DNA from: an archaeon
GTDB taxonomy: Archaea > Iainarchaeota > Iainarchaeia > Iainarchaeales > JAAZKV01
Direction of reading: 5' to 3'
Length of the DNA: 64,000 nucleotides
Assembly (NCBI GenBank): GCA_041664905.1
Contig: JBAYJX010000002.1
Location: 530 to 64,529 of the forward strand
Under the pieces are notes generated by a model. The model was not told where the DNA came from. It did no database searches and was given only the letters and a program-made list of their open reading frames with translations. Numbering within the stretch: position 1 is the stretch's first letter; each line of letters begins with the position of its first letter. Position numbers and translations under genes: made by a program. Positions 16,420 through 35,606 of the stretch are shown here, one piece after another.

Positions 16420-18471
16420 TTATTTTATTGTTATTACTGCATCTACTGCAAAGCAGCCGTTCTCGGTTACGAATACAGGATTAAATTCTATTTCTTTTAT
16501 TTGAGGGTAAGTCAAAACTATGTTTGATACAGCTTTTAGCATTTTTTTGAGTGAATCAATGTCATACTTTTTCTTTGTCCGGTAACCTTGCAAAACTTTT
16601 GTTCCTTTTACTTCTGAAAGCATTTCCTCAATATCTGAATCATTAATAGGGGCAATTTTTTGGGAGAAGTCCTGCATTATTTCAACAAATATTCCCCCCA
16701 GTCCATAAGTAACTGCTTTTCCAAATTCAGTATCAATTGCGGAAACAAGAACTTCTTGTCCGCTTAGCATTTCCTGTAAAGCAAATCTGGGTTGGATTTG
16801 CATGCTTTTCATTTTTTCAGACATTAGCTGAATTTGTCCCTCAAGTTCTTCTTTGTTTTGAATATTTGCTTTAACTAAGCCCACATCTGTTTTGTGTGCT
16901 AAACCGCTGGCAGTTTTTAACGCAACCGGATAATTTAGGTGTGCAAAATCAACTTCTTCTTTTTTTGAAAAGAAAATTGTTTTTGGAGTAGCTATTCCAA
17001 ATTCTTTAAGTAAAATAAAGGATTCTTCCATAGATAGTTGTTTTTTTCCAAAAAGCATTTTTAGTATGGCTTTATTCGGTTTTACTTTTTGTTCAAATGA
17101 TTTTTTTAGCTTCTTTCTATTTGTGTATTCGGCAAGTCTTGACAGTGCTTTTATTCCTCTTTCAGGAGTTTCAAACTCTACTACTCCGTGTTCTTTTAAG
17201 TATCTGCGTGGATGTGAAACTGCAGTTCCGCCCAAAAACGAAGCCATAATTGGTTTCTTTTTGTTTAATGCAGCAATAATGTCAGCAACTCTTTCAGGAT
17301 TTGTCATACTCTGGGGAGTAAGTAGAGTATAAACAATATCTATTGCTGGATCATCTTGTATTGTTTTTAGTGCAGTTCGGTAATCAATGGGTTTTGCATC
17401 CCCAATTAAATCAAGTGGGTTTGATGCGTGCGGATTTATTTCTTTTACCGCAGCTAGTGTTTTTGGACTAAAATTAGGTAGAACAAAATTGTGTGCAGCG
17501 GCAGAATCCGCAGCAATTACCCCCGGTCCGCCAGCATTTGTAACTACCCCTAGTCTAAAAGAATTTATTTTTTTCATTTTTGATAAAAGTTTTGCCATAT
17601 CAAAAAATCCTTCAATTGAGTTTACTCTCAAAATGTTTGCTTTTTTGCATGCAACTGAAAATATTTTATCATCAACACTCATCGCGCCTGTGTGCGAAGA
17701 AGCAGCTTTTTGTCCTTCAACTGATCTGCCAGATTTTATTAGAATTACTGGTTTTTTCTTTGCAAGTTTTGCGGCTTCTTTTAAAAATAGCTCTGCATTT
17801 TTCACTGATTCCATGTAAACAAAAACGGATTTTGTTGCAGGATCTTTTTCTAAATATGAAAAATAACTAGCTTCGCTTAAGAAAGATTTGTTTCCAGTTG
17901 AAATAAATTTTGAGAAACCTACTTTTTCTTGTCTTGCCCAATCAAGAATTGCTGTGCATAATGCTCCCGATTGTGAAACTACTGCTATGTGTCCATATTG
18001 TGGGAAAGTTGCTGAAAAAGAACCATTAAACCCATTTTCAGTGTTTATTACTCCCAAAGTGTTTGGCCCAACTACTGCCATTTTATGTTCTTCAATTATT
18101 TGTCGCATTTCATCTTCGAGTTTTTTCCCTTCTTCTCCAATTTCTGAAAACCCGGCAGTTATAATTATTGCAGCTTTAATATTTTTTTGAGCACATTCTT
18201 TTAGGACGGCAGGAACAAATTGTGCAGGAACACAAATTATTACCGAATCAACAGGTTTAGTTACTTTTAGAATTGATGGGTAAGCAACAATCCCTTGAAT
18301 TTCTTTTTCATTGAGATTTATTGGAACTATTTCTCCTGCAAAATCAGCTTCAATTAAATTTTTTACTATTGCATAACCCACTTTTCCAGGAGTGTTTGAT
18401 GCCCCAATAATAGCAACTCGTTTTGAGTTAAACAATTTTTCTAAATTAATAGGAACTATATTGCTAGGCAT
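16420..18471 (-). CDS. acd: ADP-forming acetyl-CoA synthetase (fused alpha/beta, ACD)
   Basis: Three parts in 683 aa: N-terminal CoA-binding domain (VAIIGASNTPGKVGY), a succinyl-CoA-synthetase-like flavodoxin domain and a C-terminal ATP-grasp. Confidence 0.9.
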   Translation of the reverse strand: MPSNIVPINLEKLFNSKRVAIIGASNTPGKVGYAIVKNLIEADFAGEIVPINLNEKEIQGIVAYPSILKVTKPVDSVIICVPAQFVPAVLKECAQKNIKAAIIITAGFSEIGEEGKKLEDEMRQIIEEHKMAVVGPNTLGVINTENGFNGSFSATFPQYGHIAVVSQSGALCTAILDWARQEKVGFSKFISTGNKSFLSEASYFSYLEKDPATKSVFVYMESVKNAELFLKEAAKLAKKKPVILIKSGRSVEGQKAASSHTGAMSVDDKIFSVACKKANILRVNSIEGFFDMAKLLSKMKKINSFRLGVVTNAGGPGVIAADSAAAHNFVLPNFSPKTLAAVKEINPHASNPLDLIGDAKPIDYRTALKTIQDDPAIDIVYTLLTPQSMTNPERVADIIAALNKKKPIMASFLGGTAVSHPRRYLKEHGVVEFETPERGIKALSRLAEYTNRKKLKKSFEQKVKPNKAILKMLFGKKQLSMEESFILLKEFGIATPKTIFFSKKEEVDFAHLNYPVALKTASGLAHKTDVGLVKANIQNKEELEGQIQLMSEKMKSMQIQPRFALQEMLSGQEVLVSAIDTEFGKAVTYGLGGIFVEIMQDFSQKIAPINDSDIEEMLSEVKGTKVLQGYRTKKKYDIDSLKKMLKAVSNIVLTYPQIKEIEFNPVFVTENGCFAVDAVITIK

Positions 18472-23853: not shown

Positions 23854-25869
23854 CTAAAATAGAGTATCAAAAGCTTTCTTTCCTTCTATTCCTTCCATGT
23901 AACTCATTCGGGCATCAACGTATTCCTGAATCTTTTTTACTAAATCAGGAGTTAGGTGTTTGAATCTCCCTTGCATCATTAAATAATCTTCAACAGGTTT
24001 TTTTTCAGTTGGTTTAAAATTAAATTTCAAAACTCCATCTTCTATTTCATATAGAGGAAATACATTTGTGTCCATTGCTTTTTGAGCAATTTCTAAAGTG
24101 ATTGAAGAATCTATTTTCCAACCAGGAATACAAGGAACCATTACGTGTAAGAGCGAGGGACCATTTACTTGGAGTGCTTTTTGTACTTTCATTTTCAAAT
24201 CAAATAAATTTGCTACGCTTGCGCTTGCAACATATTTTATTCCGTGCGCTGCTGCAATAAATGGAAGAGGTTTTTTTGGTAATTGTTTTCCAGGAATTAC
24301 TTTTCCTGCAGGAGTAGTTGTTGTATTTGCATAAGGGAAAGTTGCTCCGCTTCTTTGGATTCCTGTGTTGTGTACAACTAATCCATTTGCTACAAAGTTG
24401 TGTTCTCCTTCGACTCGCAAATCAAGTGTTGGTTCAAGTCCTTTTTTAATTATAGAAGTTATTTTTTTGGTTTCAAAATGATCGTTTCCAAACAAATAAT
24501 TCCTTTGCTTAGCTTGATTTGCATACTTTAATAAAGCGCCTCTTTTTCCACTAAAGCACACATATCCATAAGTTGAATCAGCTAATAATTCACGTTCAAC
24601 AACCAAAGTTCCTTTTTCTTTTGTTTGTTGATGAATTTTTCCCACTCGCACGTCCATTGTCTGGAGTAATAATCTTAGTGTTCGTAAGAGTTCATAGCTT
24701 GCTGAAACATACCTGTTGCTTTTTCCAGTTTTGTATCCATCTGAAAGCATTAGTCCTTCAACAAAAGCTTGTTTTTCTTCTAAAGATAGAGTAAATACCC
24801 AACCGGGGATAATCTTGTTTTTAGCTCCTTTCCCAAAACCTAAAGAATCAATAAATCGGGCTATATTTATTGAATTTAAGTGTAGTTCATCTTTGTTTTC
24901 GCTTAAGCAGTGTTTCCATAAAAGACTTTCAATTAAACTCTTGGCATCTTCTCTTCCTTTTTTTCCTTCGGGAAGAGAGAATCCAGTTTCAGCTTTTTCT
25001 GTTCTTGTCCATCCGTCACCAACATATAGCCCTAAGAATTTCATTAGGGTTGTTGAAGATTTTTCAGGCAAATGAACTTCATTAATTTTGTTCACTTTGT
25101 AATCTCCTTTATGGGACTCTTCAATTGAATTGAAAACAAATGGCTCGCCGGATAGTCCTTTCTTTAATGAAACTACTTCGTCACCAACCTCTAATTGTTC
25201 AACCATTTTCCAGACGAATTGATTTTGTCCAGATTTACCGTTTCTTTGTAATACAAGGAATGGATGGTTTCCAGTAGCTTTTATTGTGTTAGAGGCAGTA
25301 TTTATTTCAAATACTCTTTTTACCCCATTATCAAATACTCCCGTACAGGGTTTTAGAGTAAGCTCGTGAGTTTTTTGATCAAATGCATAAACCAAGTCAC
25401 CAATTTTTATTTCAGTGATTTTTTTCAACCCGTCTTTTGTCATTATTAGTGAATCCAGCGATAGGCAATTCATGTAAGCTTCGTTATCTGTTACAATGTA
25501 AAGCACTTTTTGTCCTCTTTCTAGTGCTCCACTTAGTGCTCCAAACCCAATATCAAACATTGCTCCATCTCCGCCAATTGCAACTACATTTGTTGTAATG
25601 TTTTTTTTCATATTTAGTGCAGCTCTTACTCCGCTTGCTACTGCAGCAGTATTCTCGAAAGCACAGTGTACCCAAGGTACTTCCCAAGAGGTTTCTGGAT
25701 ATGGAGTTGAAACTACTTCCATGCAACCAGTTGCTTCTACAACTATTGTATCTGCCCCACAGGCTTTCATAATATGTCTTAGTGCTAGTGCTTCTCCGCA
25801 CCCGCCGCAAGCTCTGTGTCCGCTTGCAAAATATTCTTTTTCATCAATTCCAAGTATTGCCATAAACAT
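23854..25869 (-). CDS. porB: pyruvate:ferredoxin oxidoreductase beta subunit (TPP-binding), interrupted by an intein
   Basis: The exteins reconstruct the conserved GDGAMFDIG...YIVTDNEAYMN|TGIQRSG sequence. The 672-aa precursor compares with ~305 aa after removing 367 aa. Confidence 0.9.
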   Translation of the reverse strand: MFMAILGIDEKEYFASGHRACGGCGEALALRHIMKACGADTIVVEATGCMEVVSTPYPETSWEVPWVHCAFENTAAVASGVRAALNMKKNITTNVVAIGGDGAMFDIGFGALSGALERGQKVLYIVTDNEAYMNCLSLDSLIMTKDGLKKITEIKIGDLVYAFDQKTHELTLKPCTGVFDNGVKRVFEINTASNTIKATGNHPFLVLQRNGKSGQNQFVWKMVEQLEVGDEVVSLKKGLSGEPFVFNSIEESHKGDYKVNKINEVHLPEKSSTTLMKFLGLYVGDGWTRTEKAETGFSLPEGKKGREDAKSLIESLLWKHCLSENKDELHLNSINIARFIDSLGFGKGAKNKIIPGWVFTLSLEEKQAFVEGLMLSDGYKTGKSNRYVSASYELLRTLRLLLQTMDVRVGKIHQQTKEKGTLVVERELLADSTYGYVCFSGKRGALLKYANQAKQRNYLFGNDHFETKKITSIIKKGLEPTLDLRVEGEHNFVANGLVVHNTGIQRSGATFPYANTTTTPAGKVIPGKQLPKKPLPFIAAAHGIKYVASASVANLFDLKMKVQKALQVNGPSLLHVMVPCIPGWKIDSSITLEIAQKAMDTNVFPLYEIEDGVLKFNFKPTEKKPVEDYLMMQGRFKHLTPDLVKKIQEYVDARMSYMEGIEGKKAFDTLF
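24367..25467 (-). mobile_element. intein (367 aa) with LAGLIDADG homing-endonuclease domain, inserted in porB
   Basis: Begins CLSLDSLIMTKDG (Cys1) and has block B TGNHPFLV. LAGLIDADG motifs: LGLYVGDGW and FVEGLMLSDGY. Ends HNFVANGLVVHN followed by Thr(+1). Coordinates were checked codon by codon. Confidence 0.9.
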
Positions 25870-26300
25870 CAATTCCTCTCAAAATATTTTTTCATTAAAT
25901 TAACATTATTTTTTACTAATTTAATTGTTTCTGGTTTCATCATATTTTTTTGTGCATGAAGCATTATTGGTCTTACTGATTCTATCTTTTTTCCAAACTT
26001 TTCCATCCAAGCTAGTCTAGGAAACATCCACAAATGAAATCCGCCTTCAGTATCTTCGTTTTGGAATAAATATACTTCATTTAACCCGAGGGCTTCTTTC
26101 ATCCCTTTTCTTGTTTTGTATATTAATTCAATAAACTCTTTGCGCTCGGAATCATTAAATTCTAGTATTGACTTGGCTTTTCTTTTTGCGCCAGCAATCA
26201 TAAATCCAGGGATTGGAACTTCCCAATCTTGGCCAACAACAAAACTCTTTGATTCAAAAACAATTTGATCTTCAAACGGGTAATTGTCTTTAATTTCCAT
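25869..26300 (-). CDS. HIT-like superfamily protein with a divergent triad (GGFHLWMFPR), located between porA and porB
   Basis: 143 aa with a HIT-fold-like pattern. Its stop overlaps the porB start region (TGATGTTTATG). Confidence 0.55.
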   Translation of the reverse strand: MEIKDNYPFEDQIVFESKSFVVGQDWEVPIPGFMIAGAKRKAKSILEFNDSERKEFIELIYKTRKGMKEALGLNEVYLFQNEDTEGGFHLWMFPRLAWMEKFGKKIESVRPIMLHAQKNMMKPETIKLVKNNVNLMKKYFERN

Positions 26301-26306
26301 CCATCA

Positions 26307-27461
26307 TCACTTCAACCAATATCCTTCTTTTCCTTTTATTATTGTTTCAAATGCCGCAGCAATTCTTTTTCTATCAATATCTCTTCCACCTAATCCAGCA
26401 ATAAATCCTGTTACTTTTGTTTTCGAAGTTTTGAGCGCTGCTTTTGTATCTGTTGCAAGTGGTCCTTCGTAACCTATAGAAATATGTCTGTCAATTACTC
26501 CAAGAGATTTTATTTTTTTACAAGCTTTAATTATTTCTTCAACCGGGAAAGGTCGTACACATTTTAATCTAATTATTCCTACTTTTTTTCCTTTTTTTCG
26601 CATTTCTTCTACTACTGCTCGAGCTGAACCAGTTGATACTGCACCAACTGTCATTATTGCATACTCAGCATCTTTCATCTCAATTAATTCAGCAAGTCCA
26701 TCTCCATAACTTCTACCAAATTCTTTTGCAAATTCTGCGCTCACTTTTGGAATTATTTCTAGTGCTTTAAGCATTGCGTTTTGGTATTGTTCTTTAAATT
26801 CAAAGTAAGTGTTGGGTTGAGCAAAAGCGCCTATAGAGATAGGTTTAGATGTGTCCAAGAAATTAAGTGGTTTATATTCTGGTAAAAACCCATCTACTTT
26901 TTCAGCATCTTCAATTTGTATTGGTTCATACACGTGACTTAATGCAAACCCATCAATGCAAACCATTACTGGCATCAAAACATTTTCATTTTCAGCTATC
27001 TTGTAAGCCATTATTGTTGTGTCAAATGCTTCTTGGGCAGATTCACAATATAATTGTATCCAACCTTGGTCGCGTTCACTCATTGTATCGGAGTGATCGT
27101 TCCATATATTTAGTGGACCAGATAAAGCTCGATTTGCTACTGCCATTACTGCAGGGAAACGTGAAGCAGAAATTATTGGAATTATTTCATGCATTAGTGC
27201 TAGTCCTTGTGAAGCTGTTGCAGTAAAAGAACGTACCCCTGTCGCATATGCTCCATAAAGTGCCGAAGCAGCAGAGTGTTCACTCTCAACAAGAATTAAT
27301 TCTGCATCCATTTCTCCATTTGCAACAAATTCACTTAATCTTTCAGGAATTAAAGTACTCGGAGTAATTGGATACATTGGCAAAACTTTTGGTTTACAAA
27401 GTTTTACTGCATGCGCAACTGCATCTGCTCCTGATATAACAACTTTTTTTGGCATAAACAT
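26307..27461 (-). CDS. porA: pyruvate:ferredoxin oxidoreductase alpha subunit
   Basis: GADAVAHAVKLC...YPITPST...ESEHSA..A..GA...G.R..TATASQGL are typical PorA/KorA motifs. Confidence 0.9.
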   Translation of the reverse strand: MFMPKKVVISGADAVAHAVKLCKPKVLPMYPITPSTLIPERLSEFVANGEMDAELILVESEHSAASALYGAYATGVRSFTATASQGLALMHEIIPIISASRFPAVMAVANRALSGPLNIWNDHSDTMSERDQGWIQLYCESAQEAFDTTIMAYKIAENENVLMPVMVCIDGFALSHVYEPIQIEDAEKVDGFLPEYKPLNFLDTSKPISIGAFAQPNTYFEFKEQYQNAMLKALEIIPKVSAEFAKEFGRSYGDGLAELIEMKDAEYAIMTVGAVSTGSARAVVEEMRKKGKKVGIIRLKCVRPFPVEEIIKACKKIKSLGVIDRHISIGYEGPLATDTKAALKTSKTKVTGFIAGLGGRDIDRKRIAAAFETIIKGKEGYWLK

Positions 27462-27492
27462 CAATCCACAAATACTTCTTTCTTCACTAAAT

Positions 27493-27810
27493 TTATTTCT
27501 CCTCTATTTTATAACTAATCGCTTTTACGGGACAAATTTTTGCACAAATCAAACAACCCTTGCAATAATCATAATTAACCAAGTATCTTCCTTCTTTATC
27601 TCGATATATTGCCGCATCAGGACAACTCATCCAGCACTTTGAACACTTAATGCATTTTGCTTGATCAATTTCTGGTTTGAATGTTCTCCATTCCCCAGTC
27701 TTATATGCTTTTGTTGAGCCAGGATTTGTTATAATTGCTCCGCAAGTAATCTCAACTTTTCCGTCCGCGGAAAAAACTTTTTTATTTTCTTTTTTTGTTT
27801 CTTTTGCCAT
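27493..27810 (-). CDS. porD: pyruvate:ferredoxin oxidoreductase delta subunit (2x[4Fe-4S] ferredoxin)
   Basis: CIKCSKCWMSCP and CKGCLICAKICP cluster motifs. 105 aa. Confidence 0.9.
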   Translation of the reverse strand: MAKETKKENKKVFSADGKVEITCGAIITNPGSTKAYKTGEWRTFKPEIDQAKCIKCSKCWMSCPDAAIYRDKEGRYLVNYDYCKGCLICAKICPVKAISYKIEEK

Positions 27811-27920
27811 AAAATCACTATTTTATTTACTTCAAATTTCTATTGAAATTCTCAGTGCCATAAAATCACTATTTTATTTACTTCAAATTTCTATTGAAAT
27901 TCTTAGTATCATAAAAATCA
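27806..27920. repeat. 51-bp tandem duplication (2 full copies plus a 13-nt partial copy) of the porD leader and start codon
   Basis: Copy 1 at 27806-27856 and copy 2 at 27857-27907 differ at one base (c/t). A partial third copy lies at 27908-27920. Copy 1 contains the real porD ATG. Confidence 0.9.
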
Positions 27921-27926
27921 ACTAAA

Positions 27927-28361
27927 TTATCTTCTAGCTCTTCGCATTTTTGCGGCTCTTGATCTCCCACCACTTGCAATAATTCCTGCGCCCACTAGTC
28001 CGCCAGCCACACCTACCCCGCCAGCAATCATCCCAAATTTTTGCATTGGAGTAAACCTTTTTTTGTTTTTTATTTCTTCAGCATTTTTCTGTTGGCTCGA
28101 TTCATTATTTTTGTGAGATTTAAATAAATTTAATGGGTTTAATTTAAGATTAGGATTAACTGGACTATAGGGATGCATTGGACTTGCAGGAGACAGGGGA
28201 AAAACTCGCGAAGATGCAGGACGTGTTGAAGTCAACTTAGTTGTTTTCGCTTGCACACTACTTGGCCCCATAGCTAATGTTGTTGCAAATATTCCGGCAG
28301 CAACTGCTTTTCCAACTCTCCCAAACCGACTTGGTTTCAAATTATTCCTTTTTACAACCAT
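27927..28361 (-). CDS. small membrane/secreted protein inserted between porG and porD
   Basis: N-terminal signal-like KPSRFGRVGKAVAAGIFATTLAMGPSSVQA. C-terminal glycine-zipper TM GMIAGGVGVAGGLVGAGIIASGG and an RSRAAKMRRARR tail. Confidence 0.5.
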   Translation of the reverse strand: MVVKRNNLKPSRFGRVGKAVAAGIFATTLAMGPSSVQAKTTKLTSTRPASSRVFPLSPASPMHPYSPVNPNLKLNPLNLFKSHKNNESSQQKNAEEIKNKKRFTPMQKFGMIAGGVGVAGGLVGAGIIASGGRSRAAKMRRARR

Positions 28362-28376
28362 AATTATCAAATCATT

Positions 28377-28916
28377 TTATTTTTCTTTTAATGCATTTTC
28401 ATAAACTTCTTTTATTGCATTAATATTCTTTTCAACCATTGGCCCTTTGCTTCCCATTTGTTGTTGTATTGCTTCTTCTAAACCTTTAATACTTACTTCC
28501 CCTGTTAGTGCACTAAATGCACCTAAAGCAGCAATATTCACAAATGGTTTGCCAATTACTTTTAGAGATACTGCTGTAATATCAACGCATTTTATTTTTG
28601 CTTTTGTTTTAAGTCCAAGTTCACTTGGTTTTTTGTTCGAGTTAACTATTATTAGTTTGCTTACTTCTTCATTAAAACTTTTTAACAGAGTTGGATCAAG
28701 TATTATTGCATAATCTGCTTCGTAAACTAATTCTCTTAGAGTAATTTGTTTATCATCTATTCTACAATAACTCTTTACCGGAGCACCCATTCTTTCTACT
28801 CCAAAATTTGGAAAAGCTTGAGAATATTTTCCATCTTTAAATGCAGCTACTGCTAAGACTTGAGCACTAGTAACAGCCCCCTGCCCCCCTCTTCCTAAAA
28901 AAATTATTTGTTTCAA
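28377..28916 (-). CDS. porG: pyruvate:ferredoxin oxidoreductase gamma subunit
   Basis: GRGGQGAVTSAQVLA... is a typical PorG N-terminus. 179 aa. Confidence 0.9.
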   Translation of the reverse strand: MKQIIFLGRGGQGAVTSAQVLAVAAFKDGKYSQAFPNFGVERMGAPVKSYCRIDDKQITLRELVYEADYAIILDPTLLKSFNEEVSKLIIVNSNKKPSELGLKTKAKIKCVDITAVSLKVIGKPFVNIAALGAFSALTGEVSIKGLEEAIQQQMGSKGPMVEKNINAIKEVYENALKEK

Positions 28917-29707: not shown

Positions 29708-30508
29708 TTACAATTTTATCTTTGTATCCTTAATATTCTCGCCAAGTATAGCTTTTTTTAAATTCCCTTTAGTAAAGAGATTAAATATTTCTGCAGGGGC
29801 TCCATTTAATTGTTCTGCGAGTTGTTCTAGTTTTCCTTTCATTCCGCCTGTTACATCAACTGATTTTGACTCACCCACTTTTTCCAATATTTTTGGAACG
29901 TTTGCTCGGGTAATTTCTTCAATTAGTTCTGCTTTAGAATCAACTTTTGGGTCCGCGGTGTAAATTCCATCCACATCTGTTCCCATTAAAACTTTTTTTG
30001 GTTTAAAGTGTTTTGCAAGTTGTGCAATTACTTTGTCTCCGCTCATTACGCTCCAAACAAGTTCTTTGTCTTTAACCATTATCCCAGTACTAATAGGAAT
30101 TAATCCTTCCTTTAGTGCTTTTTCGTATGGAGCAAAGTCAAATTTAGTTATTTTTTTGTTTGTTTGTTCACACACTTCATAACCAGGAATAAGTTTTGTC
30201 TTAAGTCCTTCTTGCTCAAGGGCTTTTGCCACGCTCTCCCCAACAAAGTTACAATCCTTGTTTGTTTTTTCTACCCCTTTCTTTTGTTCTTCAGTAGTTA
30301 TCCCATTATTCAAATTGTACATTTTTACATTTGTATGACCAAATGGACCTACTCCACAAACAAGAGCCACTTTTGCTGGCTTTTTTTTAAGTGCGCTCGC
30401 AAGTTCTTTTGCGGATTGTTTTAGTATGTCTTCATTCATTTCAAACTTGTTATCCGCTTTTTGGGTTATTGAAGAACCACCAAATTTTATTACACACAAG
30501 TCATTCAC
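29708..30508 (-). CDS. ipk: isopentenyl phosphate kinase (amino-acid-kinase fold)
   Basis: VIKFGGSSIT, GVGPFGH, DVDGIYTADP, TGGMKGK motifs. GTG start with AGGTG upstream. Confidence 0.85.
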   Translation of the reverse strand: MNDLCVIKFGGSSITQKADNKFEMNEDILKQSAKELASALKKKPAKVALVCGVGPFGHTNVKMYNLNNGITTEEQKKGVEKTNKDCNFVGESVAKALEQEGLKTKLIPGYEVCEQTNKKITKFDFAPYEKALKEGLIPISTGIMVKDKELVWSVMSGDKVIAQLAKHFKPKKVLMGTDVDGIYTADPKVDSKAELIEEITRANVPKILEKVGESKSVDVTGGMKGKLEQLAEQLNGAPAEIFNLFTKGNLKKAILGENIKDTKIKL

Positions 30509-30538
30509 ACAAGCACCTAAAGAAAATTAAAAAAGAAA

Positions 30539-30931
30539 TTATTCAAGTTGAACAATTCCTTTCTCTCCATCAACTTTTACTTTTTGTCCAGTTTTAATTT
30601 GAGCAATATCTATTTTGTCTACGCAAGGAATTTCTGAAATTATTGCTCCAACTGCAACAATTGTTTCGCATTCTTTGTTTACCAAAGCTAATGGTGCAGT
30701 TCCTTGTTTTTTCATCCTGTATAATGCATAGCTTCCCACAGTTGAACCTTTTCCTTGTGGAAAAACTAGTATTTTTCCGCTAACACTTTTTCCTTCTAGT
30801 TCGTGTCCTTTTTCTGTAACTATTCCGTTTGCAGGATCAACTCCGCCAAAGAAACTTACTCCTTGTGTTGTGACAAGTGCTTCTCCGCTTGCAACCCCTG
30901 CACAAATTTTTCTTCCTTTTAGTTCAATCAT
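30539..30931 (-). CDS. aconitase-X swivel-domain subunit (DUF126): putative phosphomevalonate dehydratase small subunit
   Basis: GEALVT...SFFGGVDP..G........G.S..GKILVFP.GKGSTVGS pattern. ATGA overlap with the upstream large subunit. Confidence 0.8.
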   Translation of the reverse strand: MIELKGRKICAGVASGEALVTTQGVSFFGGVDPANGIVTEKGHELEGKSVSGKILVFPQGKGSTVGSYALYRMKKQGTAPLALVNKECETIVAVGAIISEIPCVDKIDIAQIKTGQKVKVDGEKGIVQLE

Positions 30932-32166
30932 TGTTTCACATCCTTCGAAGCTTCAGTCTGAGAAGGCTTCGCAAAATCTGAAGGATTTTGCTGAGCCTTG
31001 CATGCTTCTTCAACTAACTTTTCTATTGGCAAAATTTTTGTTTTGGATTGATTCTTGGAATATGCATAGTAGCATCCTTTTGCTGAGTCGGTTGCAAGAC
31101 ACTTGAATCTTCCTTTTATTGGTGCAACAACACAACATGTATCTGCAGCAAACTTTGCTCCAGCATCTTCAATTATTTTTGAGTAACCTGCATTATCAGC
31201 TATTTTCTTTGTTGGTCTAGCCGTAGTTATCCAAAATTCTTTTGTTACTTTTTTGCCTTTTAATAAATCTGCTAGTTTTGCAATTTCGTGTATGCTTGCG
31301 TGTGGACAACCAACACTTACAAAATCTACTTCGCAGTCCATTGTCATATCAGCTATTGCTTTGTCTAATTCTATTTGTGTTACACTAACTTCTTCAGTAG
31401 GCACAGGAGTTTTGTTTGGAGTTATTCCTTCTATGTGAAATATTGCAGCTCCGCCGTATGTTGCAATGCTTGCTGAAAATGATTTTAGTTCTTCAACACT
31501 TGCTTGGGTTATTCCAGTAATATAAGCTGGTTTTGATTTTATTTTGTCCCCAATTACTTTTCCTAATGCACCAAATTTGTCTGTTCCTTTTACTTGGGCT
31601 TCCACTTTTACTTTTATTTGTGCATTTCTATTTTGATCTAGTTGCATTCCATAAAGAGGAGTTTTCCCTGTTAGTGCTGCGGCTAGTGCACTTGGTCCAC
31701 CTTCTCTATTAGTTCTTGCACCTAAAACTGAATTAGCGTACGCAACAGCTGAACTTTCACTCCATGCAATGTGTTGATTAAAGTGTGGAGTATTTCCAAC
31801 TAAGTAAGGAGTACAAGTGCAGGTTGTAATTATTCCCATTTTTGCGAATGCCTCTATTACTTTTCTTTGTTTTATTGCAAAATCTTCTGGTATCCCTAAA
31901 ACTTTGTAATTTTCTAAATCCATTCCCGCAGGGTTTAGGGTAGTGAGAACTTTTACTTTTCCATCTTTTGCCAAGTCATCTAAAAAATCAAGACCAGCGT
32001 CTCCGAGGTTATCATAACTTACGCCCGCAATTTGTACACTTGTTACATCAACAAGTTTTTCTGCGCCGTAGATTTCTCCAAGCGCAACAAGTATCCCCAT
32101 TGATTTTTTTACGGCCTTACCTTGTTTTCCATCAAGCATTTCTTGTTCTTCTTTGTTTAGTTTCAT
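30928..32166 (-). CDS. aconitase-X catalytic subunit (DUF521): putative phosphomevalonate dehydratase large subunit
   Basis: The LNKEEQEMLDGKQG...SVQIAGVSY...CTCTPY...GCPH pattern is typical of AcnX large subunits. Sits in a mevalonate context. Confidence 0.85.
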   Translation of the reverse strand: MKLNKEEQEMLDGKQGKAVKKSMGILVALGEIYGAEKLVDVTSVQIAGVSYDNLGDAGLDFLDDLAKDGKVKVLTTLNPAGMDLENYKVLGIPEDFAIKQRKVIEAFAKMGIITTCTCTPYLVGNTPHFNQHIAWSESSAVAYANSVLGARTNREGGPSALAAALTGKTPLYGMQLDQNRNAQIKVKVEAQVKGTDKFGALGKVIGDKIKSKPAYITGITQASVEELKSFSASIATYGGAAIFHIEGITPNKTPVPTEEVSVTQIELDKAIADMTMDCEVDFVSVGCPHASIHEIAKLADLLKGKKVTKEFWITTARPTKKIADNAGYSKIIEDAGAKFAADTCCVVAPIKGRFKCLATDSAKGCYYAYSKNQSKTKILPIEKLVEEACKAQQNPSDFAKPSQTEASKDVKQ

Positions 32167-32178
32167 CAAATCACATCC

Positions 32179-33090
32179 TTATGCTGTTTTCTTAACTAAT
32201 TGTCTAAATTTAACTGCAAGCTTACCGTCCAAATAATCTAGGGCTTCGCGTTGAAATTCACGATCGGTTTTATTCAAGGGCGAATAAGCTCGAATTGTTT
32301 CTGCTAAATCTCTTGGTTTTGATTTTAATCCTTCTGCAAATAATGTTGTTACTAAATTCACAATTCCTGGTTCACCACTTTGTAATCCTGATACTAATTT
32401 GTGCTGCCACTCAACTTGATACCTAACAAATGGATGTAAGTGAGAAGGAATTTTTGAGAGATCTGAAAAAGCTGCAAGTCTCTTTGAAGATTCACCCAGG
32501 GTAACATCAACAGCTAATTTTTGTAATTGGTCTTTTTTTGTAATATCTATTTTTTCTTTTGCAATTCTTTCTTTTATATCAGCTCTTTCGCCCATAAACA
32601 TTGCTCTTCTAAATCCAATATAAGCCCCGTTTGCTTCAAAAAATTTATCTGCAAATACAACCCCGTCTCGTACAACATTTTTTCCGATTTCGTTAAGTGC
32701 TGGAAAAGAGCCGTGTTTTGCCATTGCTTCCACTATTGCTTTGGAAGCACTTTTCTTGTACCTGCTTTCAAATAATGGTTGCATGTATTTAGCGCTTCTT
32801 GTTTCATGGGACTCTTCTTTTTTTTGCCCTAAGGATTGCACCGCATCTCGGAATCTATCATGAGTCATTCCAGCTATTCGAGCTTGGGCTCTTTTTTTTC
32901 TTCCCCCACCCATTGCTTTAACATATTCTGCAGCATAGAGGGATACTCTTTGAACATGACCTAAATTATGAGCGCTGGTTAGTTCCCCTTTTTGGCCCAT
33001 TTTTCTAAAAGCTGCTCGCATGTATCTCCCAGCAACTTTCTCTCGTTGAGTCCAACTTGAAAACTTTGCACGTCTTGATTTTATTTGCAT
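32179..33090 (-). CDS. arginine-rich HD-domain phosphohydrolase-like protein
   Basis: H...HD...D pattern (HNLGHVQRVSLYAAEY ... GMTHDRFRD). The ATG at 33090 is preceded by GGTGGA. Confidence 0.55.
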   Translation of the reverse strand: MQIKSRRAKFSSWTQREKVAGRYMRAAFRKMGQKGELTSAHNLGHVQRVSLYAAEYVKAMGGGRKKRAQARIAGMTHDRFRDAVQSLGQKKEESHETRSAKYMQPLFESRYKKSASKAIVEAMAKHGSFPALNEIGKNVVRDGVVFADKFFEANGAYIGFRRAMFMGERADIKERIAKEKIDITKKDQLQKLAVDVTLGESSKRLAAFSDLSKIPSHLHPFVRYQVEWQHKLVSGLQSGEPGIVNLVTTLFAEGLKSKPRDLAETIRAYSPLNKTDREFQREALDYLDGKLAVKFRQLVKKTA

Positions 33091-33186
33091 AATTTCATCC
33101 ACCAAAATGCTTTCACAAGTTACCCGCCAAAATCTAAATTAATTAACTGTGCTTCTTTTTTCGGGTTACAATAAATAACTATAACA

Positions 33187-34284
33187 TCATCTCTTTTTTA
33201 TTATTACTCCTTTGTCTCTTTTAGCACTAAACTCTAACAAATCCCCTTCTTTAATACTCACAGTCGCATTATGCACTCCAACAATACAAGGAATTTTGTA
33301 TTCTCGTGATAAAATTGCTACATGACTGCCTGCACCACCCTCTTCAGAAACAATCCCTTTAGACTTCATGACATAAATCATTTCTTCAGGCATTAATCGA
33401 GTTACAACAACTATTGAGCCTACCGGAACTCGTGTTAAATCCTTTTTTGATTTTACAATAAATGCCTTGCCTTCAATAGTTCCAACTGATGCAGTTACTC
33501 CAGTAAGCACAGACGGAGGATTTGTTTTCTCAAACGGATCCATTTGTTTTGCAAATTGTTTTTCTGCACTCACGCCACATAATATTTCCCTTCTGCCTTT
33601 AGTGTATAAATATACCCCAAACTTTTTTCTTTGCAGGGTAGTAGATACTAGGGATTGTTTAATACTGGTTTTTGACTCAAATATTTTTAATAGTTCAGCA
33701 GGAGTTAAATAATACAACACAGATTCTGGCACTAAAAGCCTTTTGCTCAATTCCAAAAATAGTTTTTTAAGAATTATTTTTTCACACCGTATATAAGGCA
33801 TATCAGAACGTATTCTCTCAATTTGTCCTTCAAGCGCCAGTCTTACTTGTTTATCTTTAATGCTGGATAGGGCATCGGCAAAATAATATCCAAAAGAATA
33901 ATAATCCCAAAATTTTAATGATAGTTCATAAAATGCTCTATAATTAACCGCAAGCACGGCTATAGAACAATCACCAAGATTTGTTCCATTAATTTTTTCT
34001 GCTAGCAAAATAAGCTCAGCACTATTATTTTCTATTGTATCGAGAATTGATCTTACCTTAGCCGTATTGTCCACGGCCAATTCTTTTAGATAACTATCTA
34101 ACCTAACTAAATCTTTTGAGTTTCGGTAAGAAGTTGTTTTGCTATGCTCACACACTACAAGGAGATCCCTAAAAACAAACCCAATGCTATTTTGCCAAGT
34201 AGTAGTGTAAGCATTTGCAAAAAAATAAACAGATGTAAAAGTATGGTCTCTAACAAACCCTTTTACCCAGTTAATTCTTTCCAA
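33187..34284 (-). CDS. protein with a C-terminal PEP-utilizer mobile (phosphohistidine swivel) domain and an unrecognised N-terminal domain
   Basis: The C-terminus GKAFIV...GSIVVVTRLMPEEM...KGIVSEEGGAGSHVAILSREYKIPCIVG matches the swivel-domain His motif. Apparent TTG start with GGGTG upstream. Confidence 0.65.
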   Translation of the reverse strand: MERINWVKGFVRDHTFTSVYFFANAYTTTWQNSIGFVFRDLLVVCEHSKTTSYRNSKDLVRLDSYLKELAVDNTAKVRSILDTIENNSAELILLAEKINGTNLGDCSIAVLAVNYRAFYELSLKFWDYYSFGYYFADALSSIKDKQVRLALEGQIERIRSDMPYIRCEKIILKKLFLELSKRLLVPESVLYYLTPAELLKIFESKTSIKQSLVSTTLQRKKFGVYLYTKGRREILCGVSAEKQFAKQMDPFEKTNPPSVLTGVTASVGTIEGKAFIVKSKKDLTRVPVGSIVVVTRLMPEEMIYVMKSKGIVSEEGGAGSHVAILSREYKIPCIVGVHNATVSIKEGDLLEFSAKRDKGVIIKKR

Positions 34285-34311
34285 CTTGACACCCTACACA
34301 AAAATTGACTT

Positions 34312-35586
34312 TCACAAATATTTCTTTATGTCATATTTTGGAAATTCTGTTCGAGTCATTTTGGCAACTTTGTCTAGTCTCATTGTTAAATCAAATCCTG
34401 CTTTTGCTGTTTCGCGAGTAATTTGATCGGCACTTGCGTCAAGTGAAGAGCCTTTTTGCTTTTCAAAGATATATAAGTTTTTATTTGCCTGAAATCTTGT
34501 TGCCATTGCCCACTCTACTTCTAGTGGATCGTAAATGTTTATGTCTTTGTCAACAATAAAGAAGTGTTTGCCTGATGTGTGCCCTTTCATTGCGGCATCA
34601 ATTGCTGTTTTTCCATCTTCTTCTTTTTGTTTATGTATTTTTACTAAAACGTGAAACCATGAGCTTCCGCCTGGGTTAACACTTACATCTAGTACATCAA
34701 CGCCTGCTTTTTTTACTTCATCAAATACTGTTGGTTCTCTTGGCATACCCATTAGTATTTTGTGTTCAAATCCTCCAGGAAGTAATGCGTGCCATATTGC
34801 GTTTGGTCTTGCGTACATTTTTTCAACTGTGAACACTGGTTCTTGTCTTATGATATCTGATGTTCCGGTTAAATCAACAAATGGCCCTTCTGTGTGTTTT
34901 TCGTTTAGTGATAAAGTTCCTTCCATCACAAACTCTGCGTCAGCTGGAAGTATTGCATCAAATAATTTTGCTTTCATTACTTTTATTGGTTTTATAGAGT
35001 TAGCTATCTCAAGTTCGTTTACTCCTAAAGCTGGAGCCATTGCTGCTGCAACTAGTGTTTCCGCTCCGCATCCAATACAATAAGCAGCTTTCATTTCGCC
35101 ATTATTTTTCTTTAATAGTTCCATTGTATTTCTTTCAAGTATTCTAAACGCAAATTTGTTTTTTCCAATTACCATTCCTCTGTGAAAACAAACATTTTGC
35201 CCAACAGTTGCATCTTTTACAATTACTATTCCGCTTGATACGTACGCTCCACCATCTTTTTCTGTGTGTGTTAGTATCGGTAACTTTTCTAAATCAAGTT
35301 CAATTTCAACATGATCAGTTTTTGACACAATTTCAGGAATTGTTCTATTGTTTAGTGCTTTTGTCATCACGGGAACTAAGTCAGTTACTTGGCAACCCAA
35401 GTATTTTGCAACTTTGTCTTTTGATGCAAATACATTTGCAGCAACTTTGTAGTTTGATTCTTTTATTTTTTCAAAACTAATGCTCTTGTCGCCTGCAGAG
35501 TAAATTATTCCGCTTGCTTCAAGATTTTTTGAAACCGGTTTACTTATTATATAATCTGTTGTTGCTACGAATTCTCTAAAACTCAT
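34312..35586 (-). CDS. UbiD-family prFMN-dependent decarboxylase: putative anhydromevalonate phosphate decarboxylase
   Basis: UbiD-like length and architecture (425 aa). Adjacent to ubiX, mvk and AcnX genes. Function is inferred from context. Confidence 0.8.
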   Translation of the reverse strand: MSFREFVATTDYIISKPVSKNLEASGIIYSAGDKSISFEKIKESNYKVAANVFASKDKVAKYLGCQVTDLVPVMTKALNNRTIPEIVSKTDHVEIELDLEKLPILTHTEKDGGAYVSSGIVIVKDATVGQNVCFHRGMVIGKNKFAFRILERNTMELLKKNNGEMKAAYCIGCGAETLVAAAMAPALGVNELEIANSIKPIKVMKAKLFDAILPADAEFVMEGTLSLNEKHTEGPFVDLTGTSDIIRQEPVFTVEKMYARPNAIWHALLPGGFEHKILMGMPREPTVFDEVKKAGVDVLDVSVNPGGSSWFHVLVKIHKQKEEDGKTAIDAAMKGHTSGKHFFIVDKDINIYDPLEVEWAMATRFQANKNLYIFEKQKGSSLDASADQITRETAKAGFDLTMRLDKVAKMTRTEFPKYDIKKYL

Positions 35587-35606
35587 CAAACCACCCTTAA
35601 AAATAA

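Follow-up and report, generated by a model that had tools for sequence, protein, structure and literature searches.

The porB gene of an archaeon assigned to the Iainarchaeota, found on the 64 kb stretch of DNA analysed here (the window), encodes the thiamine diphosphate (TPP)-binding subunit of pyruvate:ferredoxin oxidoreductase (PFOR), and its reading frame is interrupted by a 367-aa insert. The insert is very likely a mobile, canonical class-1 intein with an intact homing endonuclease, and it occupies the TPP/substrate loop of the enzyme. The original prediction for this DNA had placed it at 24367-25467 within the 672-aa porB open reading frame (ORF), and these coordinates proved to be exact (residues 136-502). 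The parts of the precursor are as follows.

23854..25872 (-): porB precursor ORF, 672 aa from the first TTG; N-extein, intein and C-extein
25468..25872 (-): N-extein, residues 1-135, with C22, C25 and C50, the GDG-X26-N motif and the C-terminus ...DNEAYMN
25468..25572 (-): TPP-binding segment GDGAMFDIG...TDNEAYMN, residues 101-135, the last residue being Asn135
24367..25467 (-): intein, 367 aa, precursor residues 136-502
25153..25467 (-): HINT N-terminal lobe, intein residues 1-105, with block A (Cys1, CLSLDSLIMTKDG) and block B
25345..25347 (-): intein Cys41 (precursor C176), invariant and outside the canonical intein blocks
25258..25278 (-): block B, ATGNHPF, with T200/H203 (intein T65/H68)
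24493..25065 (-): LAGLIDADG homing-endonuclease domain, intein residues about 135-325 (Pfam LAGLIDADG_3)
25009..25038 (-): LAGLIDADG motif 1, FLGLYVGDGW, with Asp286
24733..24765 (-): LAGLIDADG motif 2, FVEGLMLSDGY, with Asp378
24367..24480 (-): HINT C-terminal lobe, intein residues 330-367, with block F (LDLRVEGEHNFVANG) and block G (LVVHN)
23854..24366 (-): C-extein, residues 503-672 and stop, beginning with Thr+1 (TGIQRSG...) and containing C581
24130..24132 (-): C581, the fourth conserved Cys, on the C-extein

Each of the intein signatures named in the original prediction (CLSLDSL, TGNHPF, LGLYVGDGW, FVEGLMLSDGY, VVHN and Thr+1) is present in the insert, and four curated models exceed their cut-offs: Pfam Intein_splicing (52.6 bits, cut-off 35.8, E 5.8e-14), Pfam LAGLIDADG_3 (26.7 bits, cut-off 22.5), TIGR01445 intein_Nterm (29 bits, cut-off 24.5) and TIGR01443 intein_Cterm (27.1 bits, cut-off 15.6). 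Because all four pass, the identification does not rest on chance resemblance. In a MAFFT alignment of 121 PorB proteins with the insert, the splicing residues C1, T65/H68, D349/H356 and H366-N367 (intein numbering) together with T+1 are invariant in 121/121; in precursor numbering these are Cys136, T200, H203, D484, H491, H501, N502 and Thr503. The catalytic aspartates of the endonuclease are kept in 118/121 (D286) and 120/121 (D378) sequences. Cys41 is likewise present in all 121 proteins and all 73 genome loci compared, and the mini-inteins have kept it. A bacterial intein-like (BIL) or other non-splicing Hint domain was considered and rejected, as Thr+1, the LAGLIDADG domain and an invariant active-site loop are all present; the PT-HINT and Hint Pfam matches were weaker than that of Intein_splicing. 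The GC content of the intein (34.7%) matches that of the whole window (34.2%), with the exteins at 37.6%, giving no compositional sign of a recent foreign arrival.

The fold of the intein was predicted with AlphaFold2 (AF2) from an 11-sequence alignment. The model, with a mean local confidence (pLDDT) of 85.2, a predicted template modelling score (pTM) of 0.85 and pLDDT of about 90 in the beta strands of the N-terminal lobe, has two HINT lobes rich in beta structure (intein residues 1-101 and 331-366) on either side of an alpha/beta core, in which both LAGLIDADG motifs close a helix and a strand comes next. The predicted helices (H) and strands (E) run H139-151/E152-155/E160-163/H170-182/E188-190/E195-197 in the first half of the endonuclease and H229-243/E244-247/E250-255/H258-269/E273-275/E279-283 in the second. 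The model thus contains, twice over, the alpha-beta-beta-alpha-beta-beta-alpha core by which a two-motif LAGLIDADG endonuclease is recognised. A Foldseek search of the PDB with the model returned intein/Hint structures at probability 1.00, in the order 7qsu (TM 0.74, E 3e-20), 7qst, 2cw7, 1vde and 1dq3, with mini-inteins and I-DmoI (4unb, TMt 0.59) later. By all criteria of sequence and predicted fold, the insert qualifies as a class-1 intein of canonical type in which a two-motif LAGLIDADG endonuclease is nested, and it belongs to a sequence family without a characterised member.

The best structural matches, the TliVMA/PhoVMA inteins (7qsu, 7qss, 7qst; TM 0.74 and 0.63, E 3e-20 to 1e-16), resemble the PorB intein in having a LAGLIDADG endonuclease nested in a HINT horseshoe, a position in a cofactor-binding loop and a host in energy metabolism. 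However, identity to them is 17-19%, host and site are different, and Thr+1 and the invariant Cys41 set the PorB intein apart. PI-SceI, PI-PfuI and PI-PkoII (1vde, 1dq3, 2cw7; Foldseek E 1e-12 to 1e-15, with a weak sequence match to PI-PkoII) share with it a monomeric two-motif endonuclease within a class-1 intein and a homing biology, but are 13-15% identical, larger (425-537 aa), equipped with extra DNA-recognition regions and hosted by VMA1, RNR and DNA polymerase rather than by a 2-oxoacid oxidoreductase. The nearest sequence relatives outside PorB are metagenomic, uncharacterised inteins of SufB (P0124, P0133, P0141; P-labels denote database proteins and L-labels genome loci) and of the T4-type phage portal protein gp20 (P0132, P0138), at about 30-34% identity over 367 aa (E 1e-39 to 1e-68); they occupy other hosts and sites and fall well under the 55-84% identity found within the PorB allele. 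Among solved structures, the closest sequences are the splicing lobes of the DnaB mini-inteins (Npu 4o1r, E 6.5e-10; Ssp 1mi8, E 2.6e-8), which share the logic of blocks A, B, F and G but have no endonuclease domain and reside in a replication protein. Mini-inteins at the PorB site (P0072, P0136, P0148) are architectural analogues of these, having originated independently by deletion.

The intein is located in the cofactor pocket of PorB. The TPP/Mg motif comprises G101-D-G103, 26 residues and N130, and the insert begins 5 residues past N130, confirming the catalytic-site position that had been claimed for it. The NCBIfam PorB profile, NF008819, is matched from model positions 7 to 134 ahead of the insert and resumes at 134 past it. 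Excision in silico gave a 304-aa extein reading contiguously DNEAYMN/TGIQRS (the slash marks the junction), which showed a gap-free alignment, junction included, to the beta subunit in a solved structure of a four-subunit PFOR (PDB 9bt4_C, E 1e-85), so that the expected restoration of this sequence on removal of the insert was borne out; at the junction, DNEAYMNTGIQRS, 13 residues are identical between spliced PorB and 9bt4_C. Four cysteines, C22, C25, C50 and C581, are invariant and align with Cys positions of 6cin and 1b0p; these correspond to the ligands of the proximal [4Fe-4S] cluster of Desulfovibrio africanus PFOR. In an ungapped alignment to the D. africanus enzyme (7plm/1b0p), the Asp of GDG corresponds to Asp963 and Asn135 to Asn996, which puts the intein in the TPP/substrate pocket, at the peptide bond corresponding to Asn996-Thr997. 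In that enzyme, Asn996 forms part of the lining of the pyruvate pocket and rotates on substrate binding (PMC5020499). The TPP site could presumably not form in a precursor whose loop is occupied by a 42 kDa intein.

A protein search with the full precursor against clusters from NCBI, JGI, ENA and Logan returned 592 matches, and the best 120 were examined. All of these are PorB proteins, about 655-700 aa long and 55-81% identical, in which TPP_enzyme_C and Intein_splicing domains are combined, and the position of the insert is the same in 121/121 aligned proteins (YMN/CL...VVHN/TG.QRS); the recurrence of the site, raised in the original prediction, is thus clear from the aligned junctions. The GTDB species representatives include 305 loci that code for a relative, and the best 80, which were inspected, show 55-84% identity over all 367 residues, 79/80 with the same junctions. 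The suggestion that the intein was unique did not survive, as the same intein is present at the same site in at least 120 protein clusters and in 79 of the 80 inspected GTDB genomes.

By record title, the archaeal hosts include Iainarchaeota/Diapherotrites, Woese-, Nano- and Aenigmatarchaeota, Heimdallarchaeota, Bathyarchaeia and a complete Ca. Forterrea genome, the nearest relatives of the window intein being those of archaeon WB02no2_33_12, ADurb.Bin336 and Ca. ainarchaeum. Bacterial titles include Omnitrophota, Planctomycetia, Cloacimonadota, Aerophobetes, Parcubacteria, Dependentiae, Clostridia and Chloroflexi. Since the labels of metagenome-assembled genomes (MAGs) can err, gene context was checked for the cross-domain claim instead of relying on labels alone. 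In an Omnitrophota single-cell contig (L048), porAB is accompanied by DnaX, RecR and PerR, and in a Cloacimonadota contig (L015) ComEC and Dxr lie near the intein-bearing porB; the bacterial hosts are real, because the gene context of these two loci is bacterial. The host set thus includes a single-cell genome (L048), and also a complete genome (L069, CP045477).

A second intein site exists in PorB just past GDG (GGDGA/CYSNDT...NGN/SYDIG; P0136, 798 aa, and P0129, 633 aa). It is occupied by a different full-length LAGLIDADG intein, which in P0136 stands alongside a 153-aa mini-intein at the window's site. As a separate observation, the gene directly downstream of the intein-bearing porB in L015 (L015:3713-5686 (-)) encodes the ComEC/Rec2 DNA-uptake competence protein, an arrangement that is probably coincidental.

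Mobility is indicated by the alleles without the intein. The exteins most similar to that of the window (P0271-P0274; 81-85% identical, about 302 aa, Diapherotrites/ainarchaeum) contain no intein, and their loci share the synteny of the window, UbiD-AcnX-isopentenyl phosphate kinase (IPK)-porG-porD-porA-porB-Ham1. The empty site of L081, ATAGTAACTGATAATGAAGCTTATATGAAT/ACAGGAATACAGAGAAGTGGAGCAACCTTT, matches the reconstructed site of the window at 51/60 nt; L083 has an AYEN variant. A neighbour-joining tree of exteins from 87 alleles, 43 with the intein and 44 without, intermixes the two states, and parsimony gives at least 15 gain/loss changes among them, within one Iainarchaeota-like clade; the window PorB nests among three intein-free alleles. 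Methionine is found at position -2 (Met134; 25470..25472 (-)) in 118/121 occupied alleles compared with 82/111 intein-free alleles (uncorrected for phylogeny), the others having A, Q, E or S, with Glu in the closest empty allele (P0271/L083). This bias could reflect a target preference of the endonuclease or a constraint on splicing.

The ratio of non-synonymous to synonymous substitution (NG86 dN/dS) is 0.04-0.18 for the endonuclease, close to the values of 0.03-0.13 for the HINT lobes and 0.05-0.19 for the exteins, which argues that the endonuclease is being maintained. In P0125 the endonuclease motifs have decayed (LGIFIASGQ, LIKGMTNTNG), in P0072, a relative of the same lineage, intein residues about 119-308 are cleanly deleted, and P0136 and P0148 carry endonuclease deletions with different boundaries, which are independent. 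One site therefore displays the stages of a homing cycle: empty, intact endonuclease, decayed endonuclease and three independent mini-inteins.

The divergence of intein and host gene was compared at the amino-acid level, calibrated for rate, in place of a test at synonymous sites. In close pairs (extein distance <0.1) the intein/extein divergence ratio is 1.67, whereas for exteins more than 40% diverged the intein distance levels off at 0.39-0.40 with the extein distance at 0.65-0.72. Some archaeal-bacterial pairs are 80% identical in the intein and 46% in the extein, and over all pairs the identities of intein and extein correlate with r = 0.53. The simplest reading of the plateau argues for a shared intein ancestor younger than the host genes, and such younger ancestry would imply that the intein moved horizontally from one porB gene to another, between lineages and between domains.

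The intein anatomy and the population-level signatures described above were observed directly; from them we infer the splicing chemistry, the DNA cleavage and the route between lineages as follows. The 672-aa precursor would be translated and its HINT domain would fold. Cys136 would then attack the carbonyl of Asn135 in an N-S acyl shift, the N-extein would move to the hydroxyl of Thr503 by trans-esterification, Asn502 would cyclise with the help of His501, freeing the intein, and an O-N shift would produce a native Asn-Thr peptide bond. The mature PorB would be about 302-305 aa with the loop DNEAYMNTGIQRS intact. Only this spliced form would bind TPP/Mg and complete the [4Fe-4S] ligand set, with three Cys from the N-extein and one from the C-extein, before assembling with PorA, PorD and PorG. 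The freed 42-kDa intein is most likely a site-specific endonuclease, whose target would be an intein-free porB at the conserved ...GAYAAYGARGCNTAYATGAAY/ACNGGNATHCARCGN... (coding for DNEAYMN/TGIQR); recombinational repair of the cut gene would copy the intein in (homing).

Several observations weigh against the reading of a mobile, splicing intein in a pyruvate-specific enzyme. Splicing and endonuclease activity are both deduced from sequence only. The plateau in intein divergence could arise in part because the variable sites of a strongly constrained domain are saturated, and not because the common ancestor is young. The synonymous-site comparison of intein and extein consisted mostly of saturated pairs and was biased by the choice of low-dS pairs, its direction being 13/15 one way and 4/14 the other according to the partition used to choose them. 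The nearest neighbour of an extein has the same MAG taxon label in 41% of cases only, and because exteins track these labels weakly, transfer of whole porB genes may have added to the spread. When IMG/VR was scanned with the intein alignment, the relatives recovered were at most 31% identical at full length, and none was a PorB-type copy. Finally, PorB falls below the NCBIfam equivalog cut-off for pyruvate-specific assignment, spliced or not: NF008819 scores 362.7 bits with the precursor and 388.4 bits with the spliced form (cut-off 405). The intein was ruled out as the main cause of this shortfall, which must be mainly lineage divergence, since the spliced form is also short (388 vs 405 bits). 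NF008819 is nevertheless the best profile match, with PorB ahead of VorB and oxalate oxidoreductase beta, and pyruvate specificity is likely from this rank and from the operon context.

Other accounts of the same data were weighed. If the intein had descended vertically from an ancient PorB ancestor, its wide range would reflect age and many losses; the single identical insertion site, the intein-extein correlation and the related inteins of related hosts all agree with this. Nevertheless, the intein changes about 1.5-fold faster than the extein in close pairs and is far less diverged in distant ones (0.39 vs 0.65), pairs labelled archaeal and bacterial combine 80% intein with 46% extein identity, and at least 15 changes of state fall within one Iainarchaeota-like clade, making vertical inheritance as the general explanation decidedly improbable. 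Vertical descent within lineages surely occurs as well, and the distinction is a matter of degree. It is also conceivable, but unlikely, that the intein has been domesticated as a conditional splicing switch, retained for its benefit, that gates PFOR maturation by redox state, oxygen, metal or cofactor. It breaks the active-site loop of an oxygen-sensitive enzyme, the non-canonical Cys41 is invariant and kept in mini-inteins, endonuclease-free mini-inteins persist, and the nearest relatives outside PorB are SufB inteins, a class in which the Mycobacterium tuberculosis member is reportedly stress-sensitive. In contrast, the closest relatives thrive without the intein, the endonuclease is under purifying selection with its Asp residues kept in 118-120/121 sequences, the signature of an active selfish element, and the +1 residue is Thr, so that the classical Cys1-Cys+1 disulfide trap is impossible. 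Healthy intein-free relatives and a maintained endonuclease argue that selfish persistence is sufficient. A stronger proposal, that strict anaerobes of two domains use the intein as a conserved post-translational gate on the maturation of PFOR, is a little less likely still. If it were true, pairing of Cys41 with Cys1 or with a metal under oxidising or cofactor-poor conditions would block splicing, cells would avoid mistimed assembly of an oxygen-labile, radical-forming enzyme, and the second intein site past GDG (P0129, P0136) would add a further layer.

That the insert is dead, leaving porB a pseudogene and the organism without functional PorB, is highly improbable. Gene callers do cut porB at Met(-2) (P0007, 539 aa; P0027) and the match to the PorB profile does not reach the curated cut-off, but the frame is open over 2019 nt, all splicing residues are invariant, exteins of intein-bearing alleles have dN/dS of 0.05-0.19, porB shows translational coupling in a porGDAB operon that is otherwise intact, and the shortfall of the spliced extein is one of lineage divergence. 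A chimeric join of another gene's intein into porB during assembly or binning would draw on the metagenomic origin of the sequences and on nothing more, and its chance is negligible; the junctions are precise and in frame, and an artefact is excluded by the recurrence of the same architecture in at least 120 independent protein clusters (NCBI, JGI, ENA, Logan), in a single-cell genome (L048) and in a closed one (L069, CP045477). A mobile class-1 intein with an intact endonuclease thus remains the favoured interpretation.

The porB reading frame runs for 2019 nt without interruption in the ORF listing. The true start is probably the ATG at codon 2 or 4, which would give 669-671 aa; this ATG overlaps by 1 base the TGA of the ORF ahead and is preceded by a Shine-Dalgarno-like GAGAGG motif, and close homologues of the precursor are 669 aa long. 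The gene order of the operon is porG, orf147, porD, porA, orf143, porB, and the window contains a single por operon, a single porB and a single intein.

26307..28916 (-): remainder of the por operon, with porA, porD and porG
26307..27464 (-): porA (PorA_Arch, 501 bits)
27493..27810 (-): porD, 2x[4Fe-4S] protein
28377..28916 (-): porG (PRK08534, 198 bits)
25869..26300 (-): orf143, 143 aa, in the porA-porB interval, its TGA overlapping the porB ATG by one base
27927..28370 (-): orf147, 147 aa, between porG and porD, Gly/Ala-rich with a basic tail

Neither small ORF had a Pfam or NCBIfam match, and no homologue of orf143 was found among 83 related por loci or of orf147 among 83 related loci. In related genomes the position of orf143 is taken by other small ORFs or by none.

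The genes on either side of the operon include the following.

29708..30508 (-): isopentenyl phosphate kinase, archaeal-type mevalonate pathway
30539..30931 (-): AcnX small subunit
30928..32169 (-): AcnX large subunit
34312..35589 (-): UbiD-family decarboxylase
16426..18471 (-): ADP-forming acetyl-CoA synthetase, 77% identical to the copy downstream of porB in L081
21592..23823 (-): 743-aa ORF just downstream of porB, with a hydrophobic N-terminus and 24 cysteines

The synteny of the mevalonate genes (29708..35589 (-)) and the por operon is shared by related Iainarchaeota-like genomes. The 743-aa ORF contains three repeats of about 80 aa, each closing in FYGGEGAICV (aa 241, 321 and 402); it has no Pfam match, is missing from the syntenic position in L081 and L083 and, judged by these features, probably encodes a secreted or surface protein.

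Known intein hosts are mostly proteins of replication, repair and nucleotide metabolism. No description of a PFOR or PorB intein was found in the full-text literature, with subscription journals, InBase and InterPro outside the scope of the search, and the word 'pyruvate' is absent from the main text of the intein census of Novikova (2016). The novelty suggested in the original prediction therefore appears to hold for publications but does not for databases, where Pfam domains of intein-bearing PorB proteins are precomputed and JGI names some hosts automatically as 'pyruvate/2-oxoacid:ferredoxin oxidoreductase beta subunit/intein/homing endonuclease'. The PorB intein appears to be a new allele of a known element class, present in public databases and undescribed in the literature; it is not a one-off, and its splicing and homing mechanism is unsurprising to a specialist.

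The element also affects annotation. Gene callers often start an intein-bearing porB at Met(-2), losing the N-extein (24367..25473 (-) in the window; P0007, P0027, P0121, P0135), and the stored call for the window's own gene (P0007) is 539 aa long. NCBI names P0027 a 'LAGLIDADG family homing endonuclease' and others 'hypothetical protein' (P0007, P0027, P0043 and P0063 being the proteins cited for truncation or for these names). With PorB cut short or misnamed, it may be under-counted, and PFOR may be wrongly scored as absent in metabolic reconstructions of small-genome symbionts.

For the organism itself, the original prediction held that the acetyl-CoA feeding the adjacent mevalonate cluster would depend on protein splicing. 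The mevalonate genes are real and the porB is the only one in the window; the dependence is a reasonable inference that covers the 64 kb, as another source of acetyl-CoA is possible elsewhere in the genome. Together with PFOR, the ADP-forming acetyl-CoA synthetase would convert pyruvate to acetate and ATP, so that pyruvate-derived acetyl-CoA would lead both to ATP and, via the mevalonate genes, to isoprenoid lipids. As far as the window shows, the supply of acetyl-CoA in this host depends on protein splicing. PFOR, a central redox enzyme of catabolism and anabolism, joins the list of intein hosts, and the natural series at one site, unusual in its completeness and spanning DPANN, Asgard and Bathyarchaeia archaea and at least six bacterial phyla, provides material for the study of cross-domain homing in anaerobic communities.

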